DNA of 64,000 nucleotides, taken from positions 1-64,000 of the forward strand of contig CAVZMI010000032.1 in the NCBI GenBank assembly GCA_963776275.1. The letters are read 5' to 3'. Origin of the DNA: Ignavibacteriota bacterium (GTDB lineage Bacteria > Bacteroidota > Ignavibacteria > UBA10030 > CAVZMI01). This document shows, one piece after another, positions 1 through 14,100 of the stretch; positions within the stretch are counted from its first letter, which is position 1; each line of letters opens with the position of its first letter. Position numbers and translations under genes: made by a program. The notes below the pieces were generated by a model that saw nothing but the letters and a program-made list of their open reading frames with translations, had not been told where the DNA came from and ran no database searches.

Positions 1-246
1 CCGAACTACCCGAATCCATTTAACCCAAGCACGACGATACAATTTTCGCTCCCACACGCAACATATGTAAAATTAAATATTTACTCTTCCCTTGGACAAG
101 AAGTAGCTCAGCTTTTGTCAGAGAATATGAATGCCGGCACATATACGAAAGAATGGGATGCATCAAGTTTGTCGAGCGGTATTTATTACTGCAGGTTAGA
201 AGCCAGTGGTTTTATTAAAACAAAGAAGCTTGTTCTCTTACGATGA
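1..246 (+). CDS. 3' end of T9SS C-terminal sorting domain protein (cassette 0, partial)
   Basis: Frame 1 reads PNYPNPFNPSTTIQFSLP...SSGIYYCRLEASGFIKTKKLVLLR* with TGA at 244-246. Confidence 0.9.
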   Translation, partial: PNYPNPFNPSTTIQFSLPHATYVKLNIYSSLGQEVAQLLSENMNAGTYTKEWDASSLSSGIYYCRLEASGFIKTKKLVLLR

Positions 247-258
247 AAAGGCAACTGC

Positions 259-389
259 GCATAACAGCACGCATTACGACGTTCACTTTTTAAATAGAAT
301 TTTTAGAGTTCACTCCACCCCGTTGCTCGCGGGAGAATGAATCGTTCATAGCTCGCAACGGGGCGGCGTAATGCGTGCACACGTTAGTT
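259..389 (+). repeat. attC site
   Basis: R'' GCATAAC 259-265; arms GCACGCATTACG / CGTAATGCGTGC; R' GTTAGTT 383-389. Confidence 0.9.
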
Positions 390-428
390 GTAATTGCCCG
401 CAATAATTAAAAGCAAGGAGTTAAATTA

Positions 429-2506
429 ATGAAAAACATACAAATGATTTTAGTGATTACAGTTTCTATCATCTTTGCCATAAGACCCTTACCTGCTCAA
501 TGGGTACAAACGGACGGACCCTACGGCGGCAATATCCACTGTTTTGCTGTCTCGGGCACGAATCTTTTTGCCGGAACTTCTCGCGGTATTTTTCTTTCCA
601 CCAACAATGGTACGAGCTGGACAGAAGCCAATGCAGGTTTGACGAATACTTATATCAATTGTTTTGCAGTTTCAGGCACGAATATTTTTGCCGGATCTTC
701 GGGCGGCGGTGTTTTTATTTCCGACAACAATGGCGAAGGCTGGTCAGATGTTAATATAGGGTTGACGAATACTTATATCAATTGTCTTGCAGTTTCAGGC
801 ACGAATCTTTTTGCCGGAACTTATGGCGGTGTTTTTATTTCCACCAATAATGGTGACAGCTGGACAGAAGTCAATGCAGGGTTGACAAATACTAATGTCC
901 ATGCTCTTGCTGTCTCAGGAACAAAAATATTTGCCGGAACTTGGGGCGGAGGCGTTTTTCTTTCTACCAATAATGGTGACAGCTGGACAGAAGTCAATAC
1001 CGGATTGACGAATACTGAAGTCCATGCTCTTGCTGATACACGGAACAGAAATTTTTGCCGGAACCTATGGCGGTGTTTTTCTTTCCACCAACAATGGTAC
1101 AAGCTGGACAGAAGTCAATACAGGATTGACGGATACTTATTGTCAATTGTTTTGCTGTATCAGGAACAAATCTTTTTGCAGGAACTTGGTTCGGCGTTTT
1201 TCTATCCACCAACAACGGTACAAGCTGGACAGAAGTCAATACAGGATTGACGGATACTAATATTAATGCTCTTGCATGACTTCGGGAAAAATCTTTTTGC
1301 CGGAACTTGGTGGCGGCGTTTTTCTTTCCACCAACAATGGCACATAGCTGGAAAAAGGTCAATACCGGATTGACGAATACTATTGTCTATGCTCTTGCTG
1401 TCTCAGGAACGAATCTTTTTGCCGGAACTTGGGACGGAGGCGTTTTTCTTTCCACCAACAACGGTGACAAGCTGGACGGAAGTCAATAACGGGTTGACGA
1501 GCGACTTATGTTCTAATGCTCTTGCAGTCACTGGCACGAATCTCTTTGCCGGAACTGGCGGCGGCGTTTTTCTTTCCACCAACAATGGTGCAAGTTGGAC
1601 TGAAGTCAACACAGGCTTGACAGAACGAGGTCCATGGCTCTTGCGGTACATGGCACGAATCTTTTTGCCGGGACTGAAGGCGGTGTTTTTCTTTCGACCA
1701 ACAACGGTGCAAGCTGGACTGCAGTCAATACAGGCTTGACGGATACTATATAGTTTGGCTCTTGCTATGATCAGACACGAATCTCTTTGCCGGGACTACA
1801 AGTCACGGCGTCTTTCTTTCGACCAACAACGGCACAAGCTGGACTGAAGTCAATACAGGCTTGACGAGTACTTAAGTCCATGCTCTTGCCGTCTCAGGGA
1901 CAAAGATCTTTTGCCGGAACTTGGTCCGGCGGCGTCTTTCTTTCCACAAACAACGGTACAAGCTGGACTGAAGTCAATACAGGATTGACGGATACATATA
2001 TTGAATGTCTTGCAATCTCAGACACGAATCTCTTTGTAGGGACTCCGTATGACGGCGTTTTTCTTTCCACAAACAATGGTACAAGCTGGATAAATATCAA
2101 TACTGGATTACCGGAGACCAGTAATGTCGGTGCTCTTGTAGTCTCAGGAACAAATCTTTTTACCGGAACTTTAGGCAGCGGCGTGTGGAAGCGGCCGTTG
2201 ACAGAAATGATTACTTCCATAGCGTACTCAAACAGTATGCCCTCTAGATTCAATCTTGAACAAAACTACCCGAATCCGTTCAATCCATCGACGACCATCG
2301 TATTTAGTCTTCCGTTAAGAACATTCGTATCTCTGAAGGTCTTCGATGCTTTAGGTCGAGAGGCGGCGACTATTATTTCTGAAGAACTGTCTGCTGGCAC
2401 TTACTCACGTCAATGGAAGGCAAAAGGATTTCCAAGTGGTGTGTATTTCTATCGATTACAAGCTGGTTCCTTCATGGAGACAAGAAAATTAATTTTTGTT
2501 AAATAA
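429..2506 (+). CDS. Secreted BNR/Asp-box repeat beta-propeller protein with T9SS CTD (cassette 1); multiple frameshifts/stops in this sequence
   Basis: Signal peptide, about 14 repeats of ~40 aa (LAVSGTNLFAGTxGGVFLSTNNGTSWTEVNTGLT) spread over ORFs 429-1250, 1024-1260, 1307-1489, 1383-1739 and 1880-2506, then NYPNPFNPSTTI CTD. Confidence 0.8.
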
Positions 2507-2518
2507 ACGGGCAACTGC

Positions 2519-2544
2519 AACTAACAGGTGTAAAAAAGTTGGCG
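2519..2544 (+). repeat. Truncated attC remnant
   Basis: R'' AACTAAC 2519-2525 followed after only 12 nt by GTTGGCG 2538-2544; no hairpin body. Confidence 0.5.
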
Positions 2545-2589
2545 GTGTGGAGATCGGAAGGACATTGCGTCACTCACAGATGAGAGGGA

Positions 2590-3072
2590 ATGAGTAACCC
2601 AGTGAACCCAAGTGAAGGCCAGCGATTAGCCAAATTGGCCAGGGCTGTTCGCGAGTCCACCCTGAAGCGGCTCCTTCAAGTGCCACTTGGCAAGGAAAAC
2701 TGGTGTCCCTTGTCAGACATGATGACTTGCGCTGATATCGCTCATCATATTGGCGAGTCAGATCAATGGCTATTTGAGAAACTGAAAAACGCGGCATTGC
2801 CGAAGATGGTGGGCAAGTCTGGAGAAGCAGAGCATCTGAGCCCTGAAGGGTTCCAAGATCTTGTAACGAGGTTGAGAGAGTCCGGCGTGCAGCGTACTGA
2901 ACTCCTTTCAACTCTGACCGATTCATTTCTTAATTCGCCGATGTTCGATGATCGATTTGGTGATGTCACAGTCTGGTGGGTAATCGTTCGCGGGAATCTC
3001 GATCACGAGGCCCATCATCGCGGGCAGCTGGCGGTTTATCTAAGGATGCTGCGACATGAAATAGGAAGTTGA
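2590..3072 (+). CDS. DinB family protein (cassette 2)
   Basis: 160 aa; 'IAHHI' and C-terminal 'HEAHHRGQLAVYLRML' DinB metal-binding motif. Confidence 0.85.
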   Translation: MSNPVNPSEGQRLAKLARAVRESTLKRLLQVPLGKENWCPLSDMMTCADIAHHIGESDQWLFEKLKNAALPKMVGKSGEAEHLSPEGFQDLVTRLRESGVQRTELLSTLTDSFLNSPMFDDRFGDVTVWWVIVRGNLDHEAHHRGQLAVYLRMLRHEIGS

Positions 3073-3106
3073 GGTTTACAGATTGAACGAGTGCAACGCA
3101 ACGGGC

Positions 3107-3233
3107 GCATAACACGCAAAAACACGACGCTGGGAATGGCGTTAGAAATAAAGCCGCGCTCACTACTTTTACTCACATAAATTAGTCATTCATGGTTTGT
3201 AAAAGTAGTGCGTGTTTTTGCAGGACGTTATAC
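3107..3233 (+). repeat. attC site (family C)
   Basis: R'' GCATAAC 3107-3113; arms GCAAAAACACG / CGTGTTTTTGC; R' GTTATAC 3227-3233. Confidence 0.9.
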
Positions 3234-3336
3234 GCCATTGCGTTGCTACACTAATGAAATCCAGATACATTCCATGGCAGCTCTGGGTGCAGGTGGCGCA
3301 AACTTCAACTCAATCAACATATAGAAAGAGAAAGTT

Positions 3337-3840
3337 ATGAAAACAAATTTTTTCATGTCGTTGCTTTTGCTCCTTTTCTTCGGATGTACCAAGCAAGAAT
3401 CCGCTCAAATGACTCCTCAAGAGCAGGACAATGCGAAAAAGGAGATCCGAGCGATTGCCAACCAGATCCTTCATGGTGCTGAAAACATGGACGTTGAAGC
3501 AGTTAGTCAGCCGTACCTGAACTCCCCTGACTTCATACAAATTAACACCGATGGATCGATGGTTGATTTTCAAGGGCGCAAGAACGGTACCACCGAGTTC
3601 CTCAAATCTCTAGTCTCTCTGAAATTCACAACCATCAAGGACGAGTTCAGATTTCTTCCAGACAACATAGTACTCTACGCTTGGCTCGGCAAATGTGAAA
3701 TGACGCTCAAAACGGGCGAACACTTGAACATTGACTCGTATGCAGCAACCGATGTATTCACCAAGATGATCAACCAATGGAAAATCATTTACTCGCACGA
3801 GTCCGCATCGCCAGCGGTTCAGGAGAAACCTAAGAAATAG
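3337..3840 (+). CDS. NTF2-like/SnoaL-like (DUF4440-type) lipoprotein (cassette 3, ORF a)
   Basis: Lipobox FFGC; C-terminal 'QWKIIYSHES' typical of NTF2-like fold. Confidence 0.75.
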   Translation: MKTNFFMSLLLLLFFGCTKQESAQMTPQEQDNAKKEIRAIANQILHGAENMDVEAVSQPYLNSPDFIQINTDGSMVDFQGRKNGTTEFLKSLVSLKFTTIKDEFRFLPDNIVLYAWLGKCEMTLKTGEHLNIDSYAATDVFTKMINQWKIIYSHESASPAVQEKPKK

Positions 3841-3906
3841 GCACGCATTGAATCGATATATTCGACTCTCAGCGATGCAATCACTTATCACTCACAGGAG
3901 GTTTAC

Positions 3907-4440
3907 ATGAAAACAATTAGGTGCTTCGGTGCAATCATCGCTTGTTTGTTGCTCATTCTAATGACTTCATGTCAAGACCAACAGGCTAAAGAAGAACTGG
4001 CTAAATTCAAGCAGGGTGAATCATTAAAGGCAACCAATATTGAGCTTGCCAAAAAGTTCTACAAGTACCTTGATGCAGTGAATCTTGATTCTCTCAGAAT
4101 CATGTGTACTTCCGATGCAAAGATCTTCTACGAGTCCGGTGCCCCAATGTCTTTTGCCGATATGGAACCGCTTATAAAAACGTTTTACACATCCTTTCCA
4201 GACTACAAGCATGAGATTCAGGATCTTTTCGCTGCAGATGACAAAGTAGTTGCTCGAATTTCCTATACAGCTACCTTCGCCAAGAAATTCATGGATATCA
4301 AGCCAAATGGCGCCAAATTTACATACAAAGGTATCCAGATATTCCAGTTTGCCAATAACAAGGTATCAAACTTCTGGGGCGTTGAGGATGAATTGGGAAT
4401 GATGACACAACTAGGTATGGAGCTGAAGCTAAAGAAATAG
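3907..4440 (+). CDS. SnoaL-like ester cyclase family lipoprotein (cassette 3, ORF b)
   Basis: Lipobox MTSC; 'SFPDYKHEIQDLFAADDKVVAR...FMDIKPNG...DELGMMTQLG'. Confidence 0.85.
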   Translation: MKTIRCFGAIIACLLLILMTSCQDQQAKEELAKFKQGESLKATNIELAKKFYKYLDAVNLDSLRIMCTSDAKIFYESGAPMSFADMEPLIKTFYTSFPDYKHEIQDLFAADDKVVARISYTATFAKKFMDIKPNGAKFTYKGIQIFQFANNKVSNFWGVEDELGMMTQLGMELKLKK

Positions 4441-4497
4441 TCGCGTGCAAGTGTCTGCGTCCCAGTGTGTTCGATACCGGCACGCAACGCAACGAAC

Positions 4498-4629
4498 GCA
4501 TAACAAACGGCACAACGACGCTGGATAAAGTCATTGCCAATAAAAGCCTCGCTCAACACTTTTGCTTCACAGACAATTTGTCTATTTGTAGTTCGCAAAA
4601 GTGCTGCGTGTTGCCGCTGGACGTTATGC
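4498..4629 (+). repeat. attC site (family C)
   Basis: R'' GCATAAC 4498-4504; arms CGGCACAACG / CGTGTTGCCG; R' GTTATGC 4623-4629; body similar to 3107-3233. Confidence 0.88.
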
Positions 4630-4688
4630 GTCATGGCCGCCCGCTGTCTATAGTGGAGAGGATGGGGTGAAACGAGAAGGAGTATAAA

Positions 4689-5255
4689 GTGAAATCAATT
4701 GTTTTTACTTGTGTTCTCTGCATCATTTTGTTTGGGTGCAAACAACCCTCAGAGCCAACGTCATTGGTTCCATTGACTGCAGCGGCAAAATTTGTTGATG
4801 TTAACTCTTTTGCTATGTCCTACAAACAAGGAATAGCACTTGCGACGGTAACGAGTCACGATGTAAGCATTGAGGGGCTATCAGATAATTGGCAGTATTT
4901 ATATATAGACACTATCACAACAGTACTACCAAGAAGATACTATTTTCATGCTAATTCAAACGGTGTTGGATTTGATAGTAGTACTGCAATATTTGAGGGT
5001 CTTTATTTAATCACTCTTAGTTGGTTTGATAGCGACTCGGCTGTTTATATAGCTGAAAAGAATGGAGGGTCTCAATTTAGGAGTAATTATCCGAATTCTA
5101 CAATCGATGCTTTCCTTGGTGGGGCGGTTTTTCCCAAAACAGCGTCAGATTGGTATATAAGTTATAGTTATTTTTTGAATGACGGTCATGAGAAGTTTCT
5201 TATGTTAGTAATCGATGCTAACACGGGCGATGTAAAATCCAGAAGCACTGATTGA
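4689..5255 (+). CDS. Hypothetical lipoprotein (cassette 4)
   Basis: GTG start after AAGGAG; lipobox LFGC; PepSY-like 'VIDANTG' ending. Confidence 0.75.
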   Translation: MKSIVFTCVLCIILFGCKQPSEPTSLVPLTAAAKFVDVNSFAMSYKQGIALATVTSHDVSIEGLSDNWQYLYIDTITTVLPRRYYFHANSNGVGFDSSTAIFEGLYLITLSWFDSDSAVYIAEKNGGSQFRSNYPNSTIDAFLGGAVFPKTASDWYISYSYFLNDGHEKFLMLVIDANTGDVKSRSTD

Positions 5256-5289
5256 TCACTGCAAATATAAATTGCGGGCGGCCACGAAC

Positions 5290-5451
5290 GCATAACAACA
5301 CAAACTACGTCACTCACACATTTGCCAAGCGAAATAGAAATCGGGGTGATTATATTATTGTGTTCGTTACACCTCGCCCCGGGGCAAATATTAAATGAGT
5401 CATCTGCTAAATTACTGGGTCGAGGCGTCGTAGTTTGTGCAGACGTTAGTT
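5290..5451 (+). repeat. attC site (family B)
   Basis: R'' GCATAAC 5290-5296; arms CACAAACTACG / CGTAGTTTGTG; R' GTTAGTT 5445-5451. Confidence 0.9.
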
Positions 5452-5488
5452 GCAATTGCCCTTACCAAAAATCTAAAAGGAGGTTATT

Positions 5489-6811
5489 ATGAAAAATTGT
5501 TTGATCATGTTGGCGTCCTTGGTTTTATTCTTTACAGTTGGGAATGCCCAGCAAGGTTGGGTCTCGCAGACATCTCCGCTCGGCGCGCAAGGATATGGAG
5601 AGATTCAATTTGTGAGTCCGACTGAAGGATGGATTGTGGCAAGAAATGGACTGTTGATTCACACGACGAACTTCGGAGCGACATGGTCTGTCGATACTGC
5701 CTCTGGAACTGATACGGTCTTTGTCCTGAATGATCCGTCACGATCGATGAGTTTCGTTAATGACGTTACCGGGTGGATGATCGGTAGCTTGGGAAGCACC
5801 TCCGCATCGAAGGGGGCCATTCTTTACAATACTACGAACAGTGGAACATCGTGGAGCAAGCAATTGCTGGCTCCATGGTCAATGGGTTTGTTCGTTCAAT
5901 TTGTTGACGCTAACAATGGCTGGGCCGTTGTCGCGAATGGAACAGGGCTGAACAATATTGCCGGCGGTGCCGTACTTCATACAACCAATGGAGGTGCCAG
6001 CTGGGATTCACTCCCCGACCCTCCACAAGGCATAACATATTTCATTGACGCTAACAATGGCTGGAGCTTCGGCGGCGATACCATCAATTATGTTTGGCAC
6101 ACGACGAACGGCGGAACAAACTGGAGTAATCAAATTACCGATAGCTCAAGCGGTGGATTTAATGCCATGCAGTTCGTGGACGCCAACAATGGTTGGGTCG
6201 TAGGTGGCTCTGGAAAGATATTTCACACAACCAACGGCGGGACGAACTGGACACGAATTACCAACACTGGAAATAATTCCGGACACAAGGCTGTCTTCTT
6301 TCTCAATGCGGATGTCGGTTGGGTCGGAGGTCGTCAGTATGATGAGAACCAGGGTCAGGGAATCATCCTTCACACGACGGATGCAGGTGAATCGTGGACA
6401 ATTCAAAATACGCCGGCGCAAGAGGGCATTTTTAGCATCTATTTTATCGATGCCAACAATGGATGGCTGACAGGCGACCAAGGTGCCCTTGCTAAGACGA
6501 CGACGGGCGGATCGACATCTGTGCGAGAAAGTGGCTCTTCTTTACCGGGTCATTTTGACCTCATGCAGAATTATCCAAACCCATTCAATCCGTCAACGGT
6601 AATTAGCTATCAGCTTTCAACAGTCAGCAAAGTGACTCTGAAAGTCTATGATGTACTCGGAAGAGAAATTGAAACCCTGGTAGACGAACGCCAGAGTGTG
6701 GGAACTCATTCGGTTTCCTTCGACGCAAGCAACGTGCCGAGTGGAGTGTACTTCTACCAGTTGCAGGCTGGCGGTGCAGCTCAAACCAAGAAGCTTGTGG
6801 TGATCAAATGA
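5489..6811 (+). CDS. YCF48/Hcf136-like beta-propeller protein with T9SS CTD (cassette 5)
   Basis: Signal peptide; repeated FVDANNGW...HTTNGGxxW blades; NYPNPFNPSTVI CTD. Confidence 0.88.
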   Translation: MKNCLIMLASLVLFFTVGNAQQGWVSQTSPLGAQGYGEIQFVSPTEGWIVARNGLLIHTTNFGATWSVDTASGTDTVFVLNDPSRSMSFVNDVTGWMIGSLGSTSASKGAILYNTTNSGTSWSKQLLAPWSMGLFVQFVDANNGWAVVANGTGLNNIAGGAVLHTTNGGASWDSLPDPPQGITYFIDANNGWSFGGDTINYVWHTTNGGTNWSNQITDSSSGGFNAMQFVDANNGWVVGGSGKIFHTTNGGTNWTRITNTGNNSGHKAVFFLNADVGWVGGRQYDENQGQGIILHTTDAGESWTIQNTPAQEGIFSIYFIDANNGWLTGDQGALAKTTTGGSTSVRESGSSLPGHFDLMQNYPNPFNPSTVISYQLSTVSKVTLKVYDVLGREIETLVDERQSVGTHSVSFDASNVPSGVYFYQLQAGGAAQTKKLVVIK

Positions 6812-6823
6812 ACGGGCAACTGC

Positions 6824-6960
6824 AACTAACAACACAAACCACGACACTCACACATTTGTATATAATATAGAGTTCGTTCAACCCCGCACCGAGACAAATA
6901 TGAAATGAGTCATTTGCAAGGAATCGGTGCGGGACTGCGTAACCACGCCATACGTTATAT
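6824..6960 (+). repeat. attC site (family B, arms mismatched)
   Basis: R'' AACTAAC 6824-6830; R' GTTATAT 6954-6960; body shares CACACATTTG / AAATGAGTCATTTGC with 5290 and 7698 sites. Confidence 0.8.
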
Positions 6961-6998
6961 GACATTGAATATTTTTAGATTATTACAGGAGGTATATT

Positions 6999-7703
6999 AT
7001 GAACTTTGATCCTAAAGTTTTTGGAGAAGGTTTTCACAGATTTGTTCAAATGGAAATTGACATATTCGGAATTCCTTTAAGTATAATTTTTCATATCGCT
7101 ACATTGGTAATTTTGTATTTGGTTTTTAGATATGGAAATAAATACAGGAAATTGTTTGCCATATACTTTGCTTTTAACTGGTTTTTTCTTTTTGGCTATT
7201 GGGGTGTTTACGCTATGTTTTACTGGTCAAAAATAGGTATACCATATTTAGCTTCATTTATATTAACTCCTTTTTTGTTAGGTTTTATCGTCTTTTATTG
7301 GACAAAAGAAATTATCAATCCTAAATTCGACTTGGATTTTAAAGATGTAAAAGGATATAAATTCGTTGTCTTATTAATTATGATATGGGGATTCTGGTAT
7401 CCAACATATATTTATGGACAAGGTTTCATATTTTGTTTAAAGGATACTTTATTGTCAAATTATGGTTTGATGCCATGTCCGACAACAATGGTTATTCTTA
7501 GTCTTATGACATTAAATTATCCGAAAGGGAATAGATCACTTTTTAATTTATTCACAATCTATGCACTTTTTATAGGAACCGCGGTTGTTGCATCTGGATG
7601 GTTACCTGATATACCTTTTATTATTCTTGGGATATATTCACTATCCTTAATTTTGTATAATAAAGTGAGAGGGATCAAAGGCAAAAAAGTCAACGTCATA
7701 TAA
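6999..7703 (+). CDS. AT-rich multi-pass membrane protein, DUF6064-like (cassette 6)
   Basis: Several hydrophobic helices; 'GLMPCPTT' motif; stop codon lies inside the attC R'' box (ATATAAC), typical of cassettes. Confidence 0.65.
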   Translation: MNFDPKVFGEGFHRFVQMEIDIFGIPLSIIFHIATLVILYLVFRYGNKYRKLFAIYFAFNWFFLFGYWGVYAMFYWSKIGIPYLASFILTPFLLGFIVFYWTKEIINPKFDLDFKDVKGYKFVVLLIMIWGFWYPTYIYGQGFIFCLKDTLLSNYGLMPCPTTMVILSLMTLNYPKGNRSLFNLFTIYALFIGTAVVASGWLPDIPFIILGIYSLSLILYNKVRGIKGKKVNVI

Positions 7704-7857
7704 CAATACAAATTACGTCGTTCACTCATTTGCTAAGCTAAATAATACCGAAAAGATTATATTATTGTGTTCACTCAATCCCGCCACGGATCAAGTATTA
7801 AATGAGTCATTTGCTAATTACCGTGGCGGGCCTGCGTAATTTGTGTGAACGTTAAAC
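7698..7857 (+). repeat. attC site (family B)
   Basis: R'' ATATAAC 7698-7704; arms ACAAATTACG / CGTAATTTGT; R' GTTAAAC 7851-7857. Confidence 0.9.
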
Positions 7858-7929
7858 GAAATATCGCCCTATTGGGGTTGTGCCATCCTTGACTAATAAG
7901 TTATCTTTTATGTTGAAAGGAAGTCAATT

Positions 7930-8460
7930 ATGGAAGTTAAAACGGCACGAAGATTATTGAAGATTATTAAATTCTGTATCAAAAGAGTTTTTCCCGGTTT
8001 ATTAATTGCAATATCTATTTTTTGGTTCATACAACCTAAATGGAATTTCTTAAATATGCCTTATGATAGATTACTTGGGATTGCTTGGATTAGTATGGTG
8101 CCTCTTATAATTGCCCTTAATTTTTTTGAAGAGGTAGTAGAAGGAATAATCAGCAAGCGTAAACGTGGTCGATTTATTAAAGAAGAAGCTAACTGGTGGT
8201 GGGAACACCCTCGAGGGAAAAGAGTAATAATAACAGATAAAAATACCGGAGAAATAATTGGAGCAATAAAAAATGAACAGTTGAAATTTTTGATTGATGT
8301 TTTTACTAAAGAAGATATGGAAGAGAATGATTTTTGTTTTATAAACGAATTATTTGATATTTTTGTTGAAGAAAAGAAACCCGATCCATCCCTAATAGAA
8401 TTCATTCGGAATGCTTTAAAGGATAAAGACGAAATTATATTACATTGGGAAAAAGAATAA
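7930..8460 (+). CDS. Hypothetical membrane protein (cassette 7)
   Basis: 176 aa AT-rich ORF, two N-terminal hydrophobic segments. Confidence 0.7.
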   Translation: MEVKTARRLLKIIKFCIKRVFPGLLIAISIFWFIQPKWNFLNMPYDRLLGIAWISMVPLIIALNFFEEVVEGIISKRKRGRFIKEEANWWWEHPRGKRVIITDKNTGEIIGAIKNEQLKFLIDVFTKEDMEENDFCFINELFDIFVEEKKPDPSLIEFIRNALKDKDEIILHWEKE

Positions 8461-8488
8461 TAACCGTCCGTGGCACGGACGATACTTC

Positions 8489-8594
8489 GTTTAACACGCA
8501 AAATAACGATCCCGCCTCCCTTCGACGGGAATTGCCACAGGCAATTCCCGCTCAGGGCGGGCCGACGGGTCACTACTTTTGCGAACCGTTAGTT
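8489..8594 (+). repeat. attC site with nested palindromic insert
   Basis: R'' GTTTAAC 8489-8495; arms CGCAAAA / TTTTGCG; R' GTTAGTT 8588-8594. Confidence 0.85.
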
Positions 8595-8657
8595 GCAATT
8601 GCCCTTTAAACCATAAAAAAAACTGGCTTATTACTATTGCACAAAAGGAGAATTATT

Positions 8658-9933
8658 ATGAAACGATTGCATCTTCTGTTTTTCTTTATGGTCAGCACCT
8701 CGGCATTTGTTTATTCCCAGATTCCTTCCATTACTTCCTTTACGCCATTATCCGGGCCCATTGGCACAAGCGTTACTATCATCGGCACAAACTTCAGTCC
8801 AACGGCGGAGAATAACATAGTTTTTTTTGGTGCGGCGAGGGCTACGGTTACGTCATCCAGTTCGTCTTCGCTCACTGTGATGGTACCTGTTGGCGCAACT
8901 TACGCGTCTTTTACTGTCACTGTTGGTGGATTAACCGGTTATTCAGCCTATCCTTTTATAGTAACATTTGCTGGAGGGAGCATTTCATTCGATCCAAAGG
9001 TGGAATTTACAACAGGTTCCTGGCCAGCTAGCGTTCATATAAGTGATTTAGATGGAGATGGCAAGTCAGATCTGGTGACAACGAATTTTGGTGATTCTAA
9101 AGTTTCCGTGTTTCGGAATATAAGCTCTATCGGCAATATTACTAGCAGTTCTTTCGCCGCTAAAGTTGATTTTGAGACTGGCTTTGAGACCTGCCGGTTT
9201 AGATATAGATGATTTGGATGGAGACGGTAAGCTTGATCTAGTAATTGCAAATTGCGACAACAGAAGCTCTACAGTTTCTGTGTTTCGGAACACAAGCTCT
9301 AGTGACAGCTTTACGACCAGTTCTCTTGCCAGCAGGGTGGATTTTGCGGCAGGCGTTAGACCCGATGGTACCGCGATAGGTGATTTGGATGGAGACGGCA
9401 AGCCTGATGTGGTAGCTGCGAATGATAGGTCAAGAGATTCAGTTTCAATATTTCGGAATACGAGTTCCAGCGGAAATATTACGAGCAACTCGTTTGCTAC
9501 GAAGATGGATTTTACGACAGGTGTTAGACCCGATGGTGTTGCTATAGGTGATTTGGATGGAGATGGAAAACCTGATATTGTAACTGCGAACAACCTTAGC
9601 AATACAGTCTCCGTTCTTCGGAATAGCTCATCTTCAACCGGATTCAATTCTGATCAAAGCAAGATTCCTACTGTATATTCTCTCGATCAAAATTATCCCA
9701 ATCCCTTCAATCCGTCAACTAACATTTCATTCAGTATTCCGTCAAAATCGTTTGTGTCACTGAAAGTCTTTGATGCTTTAGGGAGAGAAGTGGCGGTACT
9801 TGTTTCCGAAGAGCTGCCCGCTGGAACATATTCACGCCAATGGAATGCAACGCAAATATCAAGTGGAGTGTATTTTTATCGTCTACAAGCTGACTCATTT
9901 ACAGAAACAAAGAAACTTGTATTACTGAGGTAA
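8658..9933 (+). CDS. IPT/TIG + FG-GAP repeat protein with T9SS CTD (cassette 8); frameshift near 9190
   Basis: 'PSITSFTPLSGPIGTSVTIIGTNF' (IPT), four 'DLDGDGKxD' repeats, NYPNPFNPST CTD; split over ORFs 8637-9212 and 9166-9933. Confidence 0.85.
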
Positions 9934-9938
9934 CGGGC

Positions 9939-10036
9939 CTGCACGCCGACCTGTTCGCCGGAGTTCGTTTTGTGAACGGAGGCGAAAGGGCTGCGTTTCG
10001 GCCCGCAGGCCTGCCTGCGTGCCTCCGGCAGGCAGG
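9939..10036 (+). repeat. REP-like palindromic insertion
   Basis: CCTGCACGCCGA...TCGGCCCGCAGG and CCTGCCTGC-N9-GCAGGCAGG hairpins, flanked by CGGGC direct repeats. Confidence 0.7.
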
Positions 10037-10047
10037 CGGGCAACTGC

Positions 10048-10152
10048 AACTAACAGCAACAAAAATGTAAAATGAACCATACCGTTTACCGCAAACGATA
10101 TTGTTCGATCATAGCGGCAAACGGTACGGCATTTTTGTTGCAAATGTTAGGC
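10048..10152 (+). repeat. attC site (family A)
   Basis: R'' AACTAAC 10048-10054; arms GCAACAAAAATG / CATTTTTGTTGC; R' GTTAGGC 10146-10152. Confidence 0.92.
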
Positions 10153-10183
10153 GAAATAAGCCCTTAATGAAAGGAAGTACACG

Positions 10184-11005
10184 ATGGATGAAAAGAGATA
10201 TGGCAATCAAAAGTGTTTCACCACTAAAGCAGGAGGAAGTCTGATGGTAAGGTTGTTATCGGTTGTTCTTTCCACGACGCTTATCGGGGCAATGCTTTAC
10301 AATCCGGTATCGGCCCAAAACCCCTGCGAGGAGATAGGCCCCGACTGCAGAGTGCTGACCTCAGCCGAGGTCAAGGCTTTCAAGGAACTGGTCCTGGCGG
10401 TGAAAGTCCTGCTGCCGGTGCCCGACACGGCCCGGTACGCGCCCGACGGCGCGATAGAGGCCAGCAATATGCCGTTCGTAGCCGAGACGAAGATCCCGGG
10501 CGGGGTGATCACGGGAGGGTCCTGGCAGGCAGGCTGTTTCCCTATCTATCCGAACAACAGCCTCCACTTCGGATACGACGCCAAGGCCGCGCAGGGAAAA
10601 CCAGCCGACAAGGCGAAGGACCCGCTGGCCGCCGTCCAGGCGGCGATGGCCGTTATGGAAAACAAGATCGAGTTAAGCGTCTGGCTCAGGCCGCACCCGT
10701 ACCTGGTGAACGTCGAGGACGGTAAGACCGTGCACGTGCGCGACCAAGACGCGTACAACATCGAGAAGAGCGCCGAATTCCTTTCGTGGCAGACCGGCGA
10801 TGATAATGTCACGCTCAATATGATCTTCGGGCCGCGCACCGTCAAAGAAGCGGAGACCCTGAACACGGATAAGCCGGCCCCCAAACTTGCGCCATTAAAA
10901 TCGATCGAGCTAGTCATCGGCGGTCCCAAGGACGAGGTGGCCGCTCTCAAAAAGAGGATCGACCGCCATGCGTTCGCAGCGCTGCTGGGCCCGGTGGTGA
11001 AGTGA
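10184..11005 (+). CDS. Hypothetical secreted protein, GC-rich (cassette 9); start may be the ATG at 10244
   Basis: 273 aa ORF with a signal-peptide-like segment; visibly more GC-rich than neighbouring cassettes. Confidence 0.75.
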   Translation: MDEKRYGNQKCFTTKAGGSLMVRLLSVVLSTTLIGAMLYNPVSAQNPCEEIGPDCRVLTSAEVKAFKELVLAVKVLLPVPDTARYAPDGAIEASNMPFVAETKIPGGVITGGSWQAGCFPIYPNNSLHFGYDAKAAQGKPADKAKDPLAAVQAAMAVMENKIELSVWLRPHPYLVNVEDGKTVHVRDQDAYNIEKSAEFLSWQTGDDNVTLNMIFGPRTVKEAETLNTDKPAPKLAPLKSIELVIGGPKDEVAALKKRIDRHAFAALLGPVVK

Positions 11006-11200
11006 GTAGCCTGCAAGAAAACCCGTTATCGATCACGGCACGTTAAGCAAGATCGTTATCCCGATCATACAGCATTTAAACAAGTTCTTTATTGGGTTGA
11101 AAAGAAAGAGGATGCCTGTCAATATCCGCACCCATTAATAAGTGCCCGAAATGCGGAGCAAATTTGAAACTCGAATAATTAAAATTTATAGGTTTACTTC

Positions 11201-11279
11201 GCCTAACACGGGCTTTTCGGCTCACTCCGTTCGCCCAAATCGGCTATCGCCGACTTCGCAAAGCCTGGAAACGATAAGC
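11201..11279 (+). repeat. attC site with mutated R' core (GAT instead of GTT)
   Basis: R'' GCCTAAC 11201-11207; arms GGGCTTT / AAAGCCT; R' GATAAGC 11273-11279. Confidence 0.75.
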
Positions 11280-11333
11280 ACAATGCCCCACAATCCACAA
11301 TTACCATCACATCTAACACGAAAGGACACGACT

Positions 11334-11831
11334 ATGAAAACGCTCTGCAACTTAACCGTCTTGACTGCTTGCTGCCTGGCACTTCTTCTGCCCGCCTGCA
11401 CACAGCAACAGCCCGACACTCGTGCAGCAGACGAGGCAGCAATTCGCGCGACCGATGTCGCATTTTCCAAGGCAGTCGAAGCCAAGCAACTGGACGCTGC
11501 GGTGGCGTTCTACGCTGACGATGCAGTGGTGATGTTTGTGAATGTTCCGATGCTCACCACTAAGGAAGCCATTCGCAAGGCGTTTGGGGAATTTTTGGTG
11601 ATGCCCGGCGTAGCGATGAAATGGCAGGTTACCAAAGTGGAAGCTGCACGCTCAGGGGATTTTGGCTATGCCGTTGGAACGTATGAAATAACAATGAACG
11701 ACTCTAAGGGCAAGCCAATCACGGACCACGGCAAGTATGCTACGGTGTATAAGAAACAGGCCGACGGAAGTTGGAAAGCTGTCGTCGATATTTCTAATAC
11801 CGATTTACCTGTAACACCACCGTCAAAATGA
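11334..11831 (+). CDS. DUF4440/SnoaL-like (NTF2 fold) lipoprotein (cassette 10)
   Basis: AAAGGA RBS; lipobox LPAC; 'SGDFGYAVGTY...DHGKYATVYKKQADGSWKAVVD'. Confidence 0.88.
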   Translation: MKTLCNLTVLTACCLALLLPACTQQQPDTRAADEAAIRATDVAFSKAVEAKQLDAAVAFYADDAVVMFVNVPMLTTKEAIRKAFGEFLVMPGVAMKWQVTKVEAARSGDFGYAVGTYEITMNDSKGKPITDHGKYATVYKKQADGSWKAVVDISNTDLPVTPPSK

Positions 11832-11844
11832 TATTGGGCACTGC

Positions 11845-12092
11845 GCTTAACAAGCGTGGTTACGTCGCCCGCCTGCCCGCCGTAGCACTTCGTGCTCAGG
11901 CGGGCCTTCTTCACGACCAATTTCGTCGTGACTCCGGCGGGTAGACTCACAGCCGGTGTAGGCGGGCTCAATACCGCACCGGGGCAAGTATTGAATAAAT
12001 CATTCGCCCCGGCCTCTCCCGACAAAGTCGGGATCGGCCGAGGGCGAGCAAGTTATCGTCGCGGGGTTGCGTGTCTTTTCGACACGTTAATT
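11845..12092 (+). repeat. Enlarged attC site (248 bp) with palindromic inserts
   Basis: R'' GCTTAAC 11845-11851; R' GTTAATT 12086-12092; family-B-like CCGGGGCAAGTATTGAATAAATCATT core. Confidence 0.75.
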
Positions 12093-12214
12093 GCCATGCT
12101 CTCACCTCCATTCGAGGGTGGTGGCATTGACGTTAGTTCAGTTACCAACGGGGTTGGGCAAATCGGGCTAAGTGAAATCTAATCAGCCCCAAGACTCTTA
12201 AAGGAGTTCCAACA

Positions 12215-12694
12215 ATGAAGAATTTGTTCACTACTATAATCGTGTTGCTCTCATGGTTCATTCTCTTATCTTGCAAGAAGGACGAGAGTAATCCCACCCA
12301 AAACCCCACGACGGGCAATGTTCAAGGTATAATAACTTATTCGGGTACTGGTACACCAAGCGCAACTAAACTTTTAGTTGTAGCAATCTATCTCTTCAGC
12401 AATACCAACATGCAAGGCTCGCCAAATGGCTCAACAATCCAAGGTAGTAGTTCGTCAACATCACCATTTTCGTACTCTTTTGCTGTGCCACCAGGAGACT
12501 ATCATCTTATTACTATGTTTGATGCGAATGGTGATAATAATTTTAATTCAGGCAATACTGATCCATATTTGATTTACACACCAAACAACGCAACAGGAAC
12601 CGGAACATTTGGCACAGCTACTGCTAAATTCACTGTTATTGAAGGTCAGACTTTTACTACAAATGTTTCATTCGGAGATACGTACAAGAAATGA
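12215..12694 (+). CDS. Hypothetical lipoprotein, DUF2141-like (cassette 11)
   Basis: Lipobox LLSC; 'PPGDYHLITMFDANGDNNFN'. Confidence 0.7.
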   Translation: MKNLFTTIIVLLSWFILLSCKKDESNPTQNPTTGNVQGIITYSGTGTPSATKLLVVAIYLFSNTNMQGSPNGSTIQGSSSSTSPFSYSFAVPPGDYHLITMFDANGDNNFNSGNTDPYLIYTPNNATGTGTFGTATAKFTVIEGQTFTTNVSFGDTYKK

Positions 12695-12751
12695 GGTTCA
12701 GGAACGAACGTTCCGCAGCGGTCATTCAGCAATCGATTATGAGAGCACGGC

Positions 12752-12856
12752 AGCTAACAGCAACAAAAATGTAAAATGAGCCATACCGTTTGCCGCAAAC
12801 GATATTGTTCGATCATAGCGGCAAACCGGACGGCATTTTTGTTGCACACGTTATGC
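12752..12856 (+). repeat. attC site (family A), near-identical to 10048-10152
   Basis: R'' AGCTAAC 12752-12758; same GCAACAAAAATG...CATTTTTGTTGC body; R' GTTATGC 12850-12856. Confidence 0.92.
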
Positions 12857-12969: not shown

Positions 12970-14100
12970 ATGGCAGATAAGAAAGCGGATCTGGCAGGGC
13001 CGGGCATCAGCACTTATGAAGAGGTGGATAAAATCCTTCCCCACAATTATAAGGCGTTGTTGGGTCCCAAGGAGAGGATGAAGGCACTCTACAAAATAAA
13101 AAATTTCATTGAAGAGAACCTGTGCAAGGAACTCAACCTTTTTATGGTTCAGGTTCCGCTCATCGTAACCAAGGACAGCGGTGTCAATGATTACCTTGAC
13201 CGGGATGGTTCACGCACGCCCATTGAATTTCCTTGCGGGCTCGGTCTTGAAAAGAGAATCGAGACTCAGGTGGTCCAGGCGGCCACAAAATGGAAACGGA
13301 TGGCCTTGAAGCAGTTCGGCTGTGAAGTGGGTGAAGGGATTTGTACCGATATGAGGGCAGTTAGAAAGGACTACTTCCTGGACCATGACCACAGCGCCTA
13401 TGTCGATCAATGGGATTGGGAACGGGTTATCACTAAGGATATGCGTAATCTGGAATTTCTGCGGGATGTCGTCGAGAGAATCTGGTCGGTTATCTATGAG
13501 GCCGGTCAGATGGTCAAGAAAGACTTCCCCGGACTCAATACCGATAAATATCCGGATATACCAAAAAAGTTGGAATTTTTTCACGCGGAGGAAATCCTGG
13601 AACGCTATCCGGACTTCACCCGCAAACAGCGAGAGACAAAAATGGTCCAGGAGGTGCATCCGGCGATCTTTATCATCGGAATCGGCTATGTCCTGGAAGA
13701 CGGTTATCCCCATGAGATGCGAGCTGCGGATTATGATGACTGGATCTCGCCAACGATTAAAAAGAACGGAAAGCAGTTCCATGGACTCAACGGCGATATC
13801 CTGGTCTGGAATCCGGTGACGAAGCGTCGTCATGAACTGACATCCATGGGTATCCGTGTGACTAAAGAAACCATGGTGCAGCAGCTCAAAGAGGCCGGAC
13901 AGGAACATTTTCTACAGTTGCCCTACCACCAGGCGATCCTCAATGACGAGATACCATTAAGTATTGGAGGCGGCATCGGTCAGTCACGTACATTTATGTA
14001 TCTGTTAAGGACCGCTCACATTGGCGAGGTAAGCACCACGGTCTGGCCTGATGCCCTCAAGTCGATTTGCAAAAGAAAAAATATCCATGTATTGGAATAA
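12970..14100 (+). CDS. asnA: Aspartate--ammonia ligase (asparagine synthetase A) (cassette 12)
   Basis: 'HSAYVDQWDWERVI', 'RAADYDDW', 'GLNGDILVWN', 'ELTSMGIRV', 'PLSIGGGIGQSR...HIGEV' AsnA motifs. Confidence 0.95.
   Translation: MADKKADLAGPGISTYEEVDKILPHNYKALLGPKERMKALYKIKNFIEENLCKELNLFMVQVPLIVTKDSGVNDYLDRDGSRTPIEFPCGLGLEKRIETQVVQAATKWKRMALKQFGCEVGEGICTDMRAVRKDYFLDHDHSAYVDQWDWERVITKDMRNLEFLRDVVERIWSVIYEAGQMVKKDFPGLNTDKYPDIPKKLEFFHAEEILERYPDFTRKQRETKMVQEVHPAIFIIGIGYVLEDGYPHEMRAADYDDWISPTIKKNGKQFHGLNGDILVWNPVTKRRHELTSMGIRVTKETMVQQLKEAGQEHFLQLPYHQAILNDEIPLSIGGGIGQSRTFMYLLRTAHIGEVSTTVWPDALKSICKRKNIHVLE

Follow-up and report, generated by a model that had tools for sequence, protein, structure and literature searches.

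The window examined here, the first 64 kb (64,000 nucleotides) of contig C32 (CAVZMI010000032.1) in the 3.7 Mb, 38-contig genome of an Ignavibacteriota bacterium, opens with a head-to-tail array of integron-like gene cassettes on the + strand (bases 1–12856), in which each gene is followed by an attC-like site. An original prediction, made from the letters of the window, had described these cassettes as bounded by long terminal inverted repeats with a fixed mismatch at position 11. We found that these 'terminal inverted repeats' are the two halves of the split lower (R-arm) stem of attC-type hairpins. The analysis established their anatomy, their cognate specificity and covariation, the invariance of position 11, their phyletic spread, their absence with classical IntI and a strand asymmetry in predicted stability. 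On balance we favour the view that this is the site design of a distinct and widespread integron-like class, which would be read by a recombinase lacking the IntI-specific I2 insert and in which a wobble pair would mark the folded bottom strand.

Cassette ends match only their own partner

The attC-like sites are bounded by an R'' box (..TAAC) and an R' box (GTTA..). Eleven such sites were read in the window, plus one orphan R''. Cassette boundaries were counted from the G of R' to the last C of R'', position 1 being the G of GTT, and each cassette was scored by aligning 30 bases that start at the G of the upstream R' with the reverse-complemented 30 bases that close with its own R''. In all ten testable window cassettes (c1 and c3–c11, listed below), the start arm of 16–23 bases is the reverse complement of the bases preceding the cassette's own attC R'', giving a stem of 16–23 bp in total that varies by cassette. 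Over positions 8–30 the cognate scores of these cassettes were, in order, 8, 7, 12, 8, 9, 8, 8, 7, 5 and 10, while non-cognate pairs scored 2.38 on average with a maximum of 10, reached among c1, c5 and c8, whose arms belong to a single family. None of 200,000 permutations attained the cognate sum of 82. With positions 12–30 only, the cognate sum was 68 against a permutation mean of 27.4, and again none of 200,000 permutations attained it. When the flanks on either side of a single array attC were compared, the scores were only 0–3 (8 pairs), hence the pairing runs across the cassette. All nine start/end pairs that the original prediction had listed are present at their places, and its claim that the arms differ between cassettes yet co-vary was borne out: cognate pairs match, whereas adjacent and shuffled pairs, the latter proposed there as a check, do not.

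We noted the mismatch as A/G, the start base A over the reverse-complemented end base G (a top-strand C). The start base at position 11 is A in 10/10 window cassettes and its partner is a top-strand C in 10/10, so that the bottom strand has T.G and the top strand A.C at this place. The predicted rule that position 11 is always A opposite C therefore extends to c3, which had not been listed, but its literal form does not hold throughout, since c3 and c4 need a 1-base end-side bulge to bring A opposite C and c4 fails without it. The count was then extended to the whole genome, where 26 cassettes lie between two detected sites (plus c1); the 18 with cognate R boxes were kept. In these, positions 1–10 paired at frequencies of 0.78–1.0, position 11 at 0.00 and positions 12–17 at 0.61–0.89, with a return to background by about position 22. 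Position 11 was A at the start in 18/18 and position 8 was G in 16/18.

The elements of the array are as follows; R3 is a covariance model built from this genome's own attC sites, and its bit scores are given where relevant.

236–265, + strand: end arm and R'' box of cassette c0, the start of which lies off the contig
259–389, + strand: attC a0 (R'' 259–265, R' 383–389); bottom strand with an R stem, a 3-nt bulge and a long L stem; R3 106 bits
383–2525, + strand: cassette c1; start arm 383–400, end arm 2508–2525; arm score 8 beyond the R box, A/G at position 11
429–2525, + strand: c1 cargo, a long BNR/Ycf48-like repeat gene with a type IX secretion system (T9SS) tail and many frameshifts
2519–2525, + strand: orphan R'' of c1, without L box or R' behind it
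2526–3113, + strand: cassette c2, fused behind c1, own start lost; end arm about 3093–3113
2590–3072, + strand: c2 cargo, a DinB family gene (Pfam DinB_2)
3107–3233, + strand: attC a2; folded; R3 78 bits
3227–4504, + strand: cassette c3; start arm 3227–3246, end arm 4484–4504; two SnoaL-like genes; 1-base end-side bulge beside the A/G site
4498–4629, + strand: attC a3; folded; R3 78 bits
4623–5296, + strand: cassette c4; start arm 4623–4644, end arm 5274–5296; lipoprotein-like gene without Pfam match
5290–5451, + strand: attC a4; read, folded and matched by R3
5445–6830, + strand: cassette c5; start arm 5445–5461, end arm 6814–6830; Ycf48/BNR-like gene with T9SS tail
6824–6960, + strand: attC a5; L''/L' boxes unpaired; fold of −16.8 kcal/mol without L stem; R3 29 bits
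6954–7704, + strand: cassette c6; start arm 6954–6968, end arm 7690–7704; membrane protein without Pfam match
7698–7857, + strand: attC a6; read, folded and matched by R3
7851–8495, + strand: cassette c7; start arm 7851–7869, end arm 8477–8495; unknown gene
8489–8594, + strand: attC a7; read, folded and matched by R3
8588–10054, + strand: cassette c8; start arm 8588–8604, end arm 10038–10054; frameshifted FG-GAP gene with T9SS tail
10048–10152, + strand: attC a8; folded; R3 98 bits
10146–11207, + strand: cassette c9; start arm 10146–10162, end arm 11191–11207; unknown gene
11201–11279, + strand: attC a9; short (79 nt), R' with GAT instead of GTT; R3 22 bits
11273–11851, + strand: cassette c10; start arm 11273–11288, end arm 11836–11851; DUF4440/SnoaL-like gene
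11845–12092, + strand: attC a10; 248 nt with a branched variable part; folded; missed by R3
12086–12758, + strand: cassette c11; start arm 12086–12104, end arm 12740–12758; lipoprotein-like gene
12752–12856, + strand: attC a11, the last site; read, folded and matched by R3

The longest stem of the window is that of c4 (outer score 12), with a 1-base bulge beside the A/G site. The end of c1 at 2508–2525 had been predicted as that of an ordinary cassette: the arm match is there, but the R'' is an orphan. With its attC reduced to this orphan R'', c1 is fused to the DinB cassette c2, whose end arm resembles the start arm of c3 (score 9). Site a5 may be defective or a hybrid, judging from its modelled fold. 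The cargo (T9SS-tailed secreted proteins, DinB, SnoaL-like proteins and unknowns, by Pfam) is typical of integron cassettes, and two cargo genes, those of c1 and c8, are frameshifted. In c8 the open reading frames run 8637–9212 and 9166–9933, and a GC-rich, structured-looking stretch of about 105 nt (9933–10037) lies between the stop codon and the end arm. The array ends at a11 and is followed by the housekeeping gene asnA (12970–14100). A search of the remaining 51 kb of the window with R3 returned no further site.

This layout bears on two alternatives. Inverted repeats bound every unit, as they would in small transposons of the miniature inverted-repeat type (MITE-like) moved by a transposase. 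We give this reading almost no credence: the repeat sequences differ between units, the units abut structured attC hairpins with AAC/GTT cores, all are arranged head to tail and point the same way, downstream of a tyrosine recombinase, and no transposase was seen within the array. The arms might otherwise act at the RNA level, the ends of a cassette transcript pairing to circularize or stabilize the mRNA or to terminate transcription. They do bracket each gene, with the start arm in the 5' untranslated region, but we hold such a role to be very improbable. The sense transcript would carry the A opposite C mismatch and the wobble exists on the antisense (bottom) strand only; moreover the arms begin exactly at the GTT/AAC core, and in c6 the final codons of the cargo and its stop fall within the end arm and R'', so that this arm lies inside coding sequence. 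Array cassettes are usually co-transcribed, so transcript ends need not match the arms, which again counts against an RNA element.

The long stem and its mismatch are not classical features

Controls were taken from loci with an IntI above the TIGR02249 cut-off. A covariance model from nine gammaproteobacterial classical sites (R2, distinct from the model of IntegronFinder) picked up about 125 sites across 19 array regions that lie upstream of gammaproteobacterial IntI genes; in the window it had no match at E values up to 1. Cassettes were counted in 15 of these loci, each with at least 4 R2 matches, and 88 of 101 had cognate R boxes. They paired at 0.78, 0.56, 0.49, 0.43 and 0.31 at positions 8–12, with background pairing only from position 13 onwards. 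Three plasmid loci carrying IntI1 or IntI2 yielded too few cassettes by themselves and were replaced by a class 1 set of 66 IntI1 loci (the 64 longest of 80 plus plasmid loci L115 and L116) carrying 66 cassettes, 51 of them distinct. The 45 distinct class 1 cassettes with cognate R boxes paired at 0.89, 0.73, 0.64, 0.60 and 0.60 at positions 8–12, again with background from 13, and position 11 was an A-T pair in 26/45.

The effective R stem of classical cassettes is thus longer than the usual 7-bp box: it reaches about 12 bp and then stops abruptly. In this respect the original prediction had set its baseline too low, since classical IntI arrays pair to about position 11–12 in some 40–60% of cassettes and not to 7 bp. 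Its expectation that a long extension is not routine in classical attC sets was upheld by the background pairing beyond position 12. The median outer score was 2–3 in the controls (2 in the gammaproteobacterial set) against 8 in this genome and 7 in the relatives of its recombinase described below. In the gammaproteobacterial loci, 13 of 686 inverted-repeat pairs had an outer stem, none of the 13 with A/G. From these profiles, a 16–23-bp stem with an obligatory position-11 mismatch is not a classical feature. One could still propose that the window shows ordinary attC behaviour, any cassette start being complementary to its own R'' region, and the passage of classical pairing beyond the 7-bp box (0.60 at 11 and 12 in class 1, 0.43 at 11 in gammaproteobacteria) speaks for it. 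This nevertheless appears quite improbable given the drop to background from 13, the normal pairing of position 11 in both control sets, their low outer scores, the missing A/G among the long control pairs and the lack of any R2 match in the window.

Folding of the sites and of circularized cassettes

The R'/R'' boxes bound an imperfect palindrome, with GTT in ten window sites and GAT in one, and the TAAC/GTTA columns are invariant. RNAalifold on the bottom strand predicted 30 pairs, 20–23 of them with compensatory changes, in R and L stems split by unpaired bases. Among the 26 sites of this genome, 21 have a 3-nt bulge on the R'-L' side, and in 18 the first 10 pairs of the L stem are free of bulged bases. 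The extrahelical L-stem bases that serve to define classical attC sites are thus not a property of the sites in this genome, whereas the classical control sites had 1–4 bulged bases on the 3' side of the L stem. Immediately interior to the R box, a pair that reads A.C on the top and G.T on the bottom strand is widespread, occurring in 24/26 sites of this genome, 44/45 of the relatives and 86/105 classical sites.

Nine cassettes were then circularized in silico and folded with DNA parameters, as the original prediction had suggested. Mean fold energies were −42.9 kcal/mol for the circular bottom strand, −38.6 for the top strand, −33.4 in the array context and −34.0 with non-cognate starts. The circular bottom strand was the most stable form in 9/9 cassettes, with 14–22 pairs in the outer region: it was on average 9.5 kcal/mol stabler than the array context (9/9) and 4.3 kcal/mol stabler than the circularized top strand (9/9). 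Together with the match of cognate ends and the lack of one between adjacent or shuffled ends, this agrees with the earlier suggestion that the outer stem closes only when the ends of a cassette meet, in a circle or in single-stranded DNA. As a means of finding sites, folding was of no use: a detector based on the density of minimum free energy gave −0.11 to −0.28 kcal/mol per nt for known sites against a 1% background level of −0.148, hence no separation.

Other arrays of the genome and mobility

Whole-genome scans revealed further arrays on contigs C23 and C22 and smaller groups on C34, C7, C18 and C20. The inverted-repeat scan at low threshold returned 1464 pairs, mostly by chance, and was useful only once filtered. 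Away from any recombinase gene, A/G-marked single cassettes or short arrays were seen on C34 (about 30.3–32 kb), C7 (45.3–46 kb), C18 and C20 (317–319.8 kb). The end arm at 236–265 of the window, once reverse-complemented, and the start of the last C22 cassette (C22:14285) have the same base at 15 of the first 16 positions, and position 11 again shows A/G. As this start is cognate to the window arm, the window array is, by sequence, probably a continuation of the C22 element.

A mini-cassette devoid of open reading frame, 94 bp long and consisting almost wholly of its two arms (199 bp with its attC), occurs twice in the C23 array (L109, reverse strand, 5402–5600 and 7775–7973). The two copies are identical at 199/199 positions, lie behind different upstream sites, and their identity begins at the R' box; a variant occurs once on C22 (L110, 2640–2856). 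The duplication is consistent with cassette mobility and with a crossover at R', as far as sequence comparison can tell.

A tyrosine recombinase without the I2 insert

A 311-aa tyrosine recombinase is encoded directly upstream of the C23 array and co-directional with its cassettes, the first of which begins 14 nt past the recombinase stop codon; the arrangement on C22 is similar. The best family match was TIGR02249 (IntI) with 237.7 bits, under the cut-off of 265, and profile positions 182–234 were left unmatched. Against VchIntIA (2a3v) only residues 5–178 and 240–318 align, residues 179–239 being represented by just 21 residues here, while the alignment to XerA/XerC-like structures runs end to end. 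Judged from the gaps in the TIGR02249 and VchIntIA alignments, the recombinase is one without the IntI-specific I2 insert. It carries the catalytic domain PF00589 (137.7 bits) and a SAM-like N-terminal domain PF13495 (75 bits), and it stays below the cut-off of three Xer profiles: XerA (NF040815) 219.8 versus 220, XerC 178.8 versus 335 and XerD 178.1 versus 330. Two other Xer-like genes are present in the genome, on C6 and C11, and the cassette-array context of the enzyme argues for a role other than chromosome-dimer resolution at dif. The genome, which is 96% complete, yielded no classical IntI above the TIGR02249 cut-off. The original prediction, framed in terms of integrases, had missed that the enzyme next to such arrays is, for want of I2, no classical IntI, and that the attC sites are without the bulged bases of classical ones.

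The attI region had no complementarity to the arm of the first cassette. On C23, after the recombinase stop (L109, reverse strand, about 320–380), it contains a perfect 22-bp palindrome that shares bases with the stop codon, and the opening bases of the arm of the first cassette recur there as a direct repeat. A separate observation comes from a gammaproteobacterial genome (G001, locus L088): alongside a classical IntI (392 bits) it encodes a short recombinase like the one examined here, which shows that a genome can have both kinds.

The mark recurs beside related recombinases in several phyla

The recombinase has hundreds of relatives, of which the 80 best loci were taken; among these, the closest relatives came from metagenome-assembled genomes of Chlorobiaceae and Ignavibacteriales. 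Match lengths leave no room for an I2-sized insert in the relatives. R3 gave only 3 matches in the 80 loci; since it was too specific to its own genome, the relatives were studied with an L-box detector, which is blind to the arms, and with the inverted-repeat scan. The L-box detector found arrays downstream of the recombinase in 11 loci, with 31 cassettes, 22 of them with cognate R boxes. In these 22, position 11 paired at 0.05 and was A in 22/22, while position 10 paired at 0.41 and positions 12–17 at 0.55–0.77. The inverted-repeat scan of the 80 loci required at least 8 matches in 9 at positions 1–9 and an outer stem from position 12, leaving position 11 unconditioned. Of the 122 pairs returned, 85 were A/G and 5 had the opposite arrangement, G/A. 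A/G pairs occurred in 26/80 loci; 13/80 had two or more, which stood in tandem, 100–170 nt apart and downstream of the recombinase. These 13 loci belong to Oscillospiraceae, Tissierellales, Paenibacillus, Bacteroidales, Treponemataceae and other Spirochaetota. The suggestion that the motif might be shared by Bacteroidota and spirochaete arrays was thus confirmed by both detectors, and the motif extends to Bacillota. As far as these sequences indicate, the design goes with I2-less recombinases in several phyla.

Such recurrence also bears on the idea that the arms are a birth scar: each cassette would have arisen with a long hairpin, through snap-back synthesis, for instance, or the capture of an intermediate with hairpin ends, and the decaying relic of that hairpin would have no present role in recombination. 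The arms are indeed private to each cassette and 16–23 bp long, and those of c6, c7 and c9 have extra mismatches towards the outside, as decay would give. A scar nevertheless fails to explain an A fixed opposite C in 18/18 cassettes of this genome and 22/22 of the relatives, over several phyla, and the excess of 85/122 A/G over 5 reversed pairs. It leaves the conserved G:C at position 8 unexplained, and the pseudogenized cassettes c1 and c8 still have intact arms. We therefore regard the birth scar as unlikely.

A model for recognition of the R arm

Under the reading that we prefer, a recognition design used by an I2-less recombinase, crossover at G|TT inside R' would split the stem, so that its 3' half travels in front of the cassette and its 5' half stays behind the gene of that cassette. 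The reunited stem would comprise, from outside to inside, 5–12 private bp, the T.G wobble of position 11 (accompanied in some cassettes by a 1-base bulge), three pairs including the conserved G:C at position 8, and the 7-bp R box. Xer-type tyrosine recombinases bind arms of about 11 bp. A recombinase monomer on the R arm would need about 11–12 bp of duplex, which would place position 11 at its outer edge, one helical turn from the cleavage site. There the wobble would mark the folded bottom strand against double-stranded DNA, with a Watson-Crick pair, and against the folded top strand, with A.C. Because T.G arises only in the folded bottom strand, it could replace extrahelical bases as a signal for both structure and strand. 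The private outer pairs would in turn stabilize the hairpin of the free cassette: as they add about 9 kcal/mol in the predicted folds only when a cassette's own ends meet, they would favour free cassettes as substrates, and their insertion rather than excision out of the array. Binding by the protein, the choice of strand and the influence on the direction of recombination are what we infer from the sites, and the bottom strand as the recombined one is carried over from classical integrons.

Several points weigh against this reading. Part of the extension is shared with classical cassettes, which likewise pair to about 12 bp. Cassettes with non-cognate R boxes, probably reflecting missed sites or fusions, were dropped from every set: 8/26 in this genome (including the c1+c2 fusion and distal C23 and C34 units, the sites of which are probably missed or degenerate), 9/31 in the relatives and 13/101 in the controls. 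The relatives' cassettes were found with home-made detectors, of which the inverted-repeat scan selects for outer stems and gives no fraction of cassettes having them. L-stem features are less uniform in the relatives, the lack of extrahelical bases being established for this genome only. Contig C32 lacks a recombinase for the window array, one arm match links the array to the recombinase copy on C22, and that second copy of the gene is interrupted by an inserted GIY-YIG gene. The one public sequencing run with this DNA (X1) covered a small share of the window in short exact-match contigs, contained no excision or circle joints and was uninformative on mobility. The C22 insert itself (L110 1–470, that is G000:C22:10300–10770) measures about 390 bp, lies near the 3' end of the recombinase gene, codes for a small GIY-YIG-like protein and has short inverted repeats on either side, with the remainder of the recombinase frame resuming behind it.

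A bolder form of the proposal, which we advance only tentatively, is that the wobble-marked R arm would be the code of a separate, ancient and widespread I2-less gene-capture lineage, found in Ignavibacteria-like bacteria, Bacteroidota, Spirochaetota and Bacillota. In that lineage a G.T wobble, and not extrahelical bases and I2, would signal the folded bottom strand, and hairpin cassette recombination would have evolved without or before I2.

Relation to known systems

The sites share much with classical attC of class 1 (59-base elements) and of sedentary chromosomal integrons: the same R''/R' AAC/GTT boxes, R and L stems around an unpaired spacer, and the pair next to the inner end of the R box, A.C on the top and G.T on the bottom strand. 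Likewise the cassettes of classical integrons are arranged head to tail, gene then attC, with the boundary inside R' and a start cognate to their own R''. The differences are a cognate stem of 16–23 bp here versus about 8–12 in classical sites, an obligatory mismatch at position 11 where classical sites pair, the lack of bulged L-stem bases (in this genome), the 3-nt R'-L' bulge, the I2-less recombinase and the lack of an R2 match. The 'inverted integrase' integrons of Treponema, Chlorobi and others have the recombinase in the same orientation as the cassettes and occur in similar phyla. Arrays have been described in Treponema, with an intI of 1197 bp in T. brennaborense (part of PMC3607928), and the portion of the IntegronFinder 2.0 preprint covered mentions integrons in Chlorobi and Ignavibacteriae. 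These 'inverted integrase' reports rest on detection of IntI, which needs the IntI-specific domain, and in the parts covered they mention neither stems beyond the R box nor a fixed mismatch.

The attP(+) site of CTX-phi, processed by XerCD, likewise involves an I2-less Xer-type enzyme on a folded single strand, with a duplex-mimicking stem and no extrahelical bases. It differs in being a single phage site used with host XerCD and dif, not a cassette array with private stems, and we know of no fixed wobble at its arm edge. According to the part of PMC4792948 covered, CTX-phi is the only reaction resembling cassette recombination and no Xer-family recombinase is known with an I2-like domain; there and in part of PMC7790495, I2 is regarded as the step that enabled hairpin cassette chemistry. 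Neither cognate stems beyond the R box, nor a fixed wobble, nor I2-less cassette arrays were found in the covered parts of the full-text literature (including PMC3607928, PMC7439510, PMC4792948, PMC3053210 and the IntegronFinder 2.0 preprint; supplements and subscription journals lay outside the scope).

Classical integrons are thought to read the folded attC through two bulged bases and the I2 helix; the mark described here is a different, equally strand-asymmetric one. The pairing of classical cassettes to about position 12, and not 7, is in itself useful for defining cassette boundaries. Arrays of the present kind may largely escape tools that require the IntI-specific domain or classical attC models. 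If functional, the design would supply a finding signature, GTTRNNYGNNA at cassette starts together with a cognate arm bearing C opposite the A, and a testable model for the preference of free cassettes as substrates. It would then represent a second solution to the recognition of strand and structure by tyrosine recombinases.

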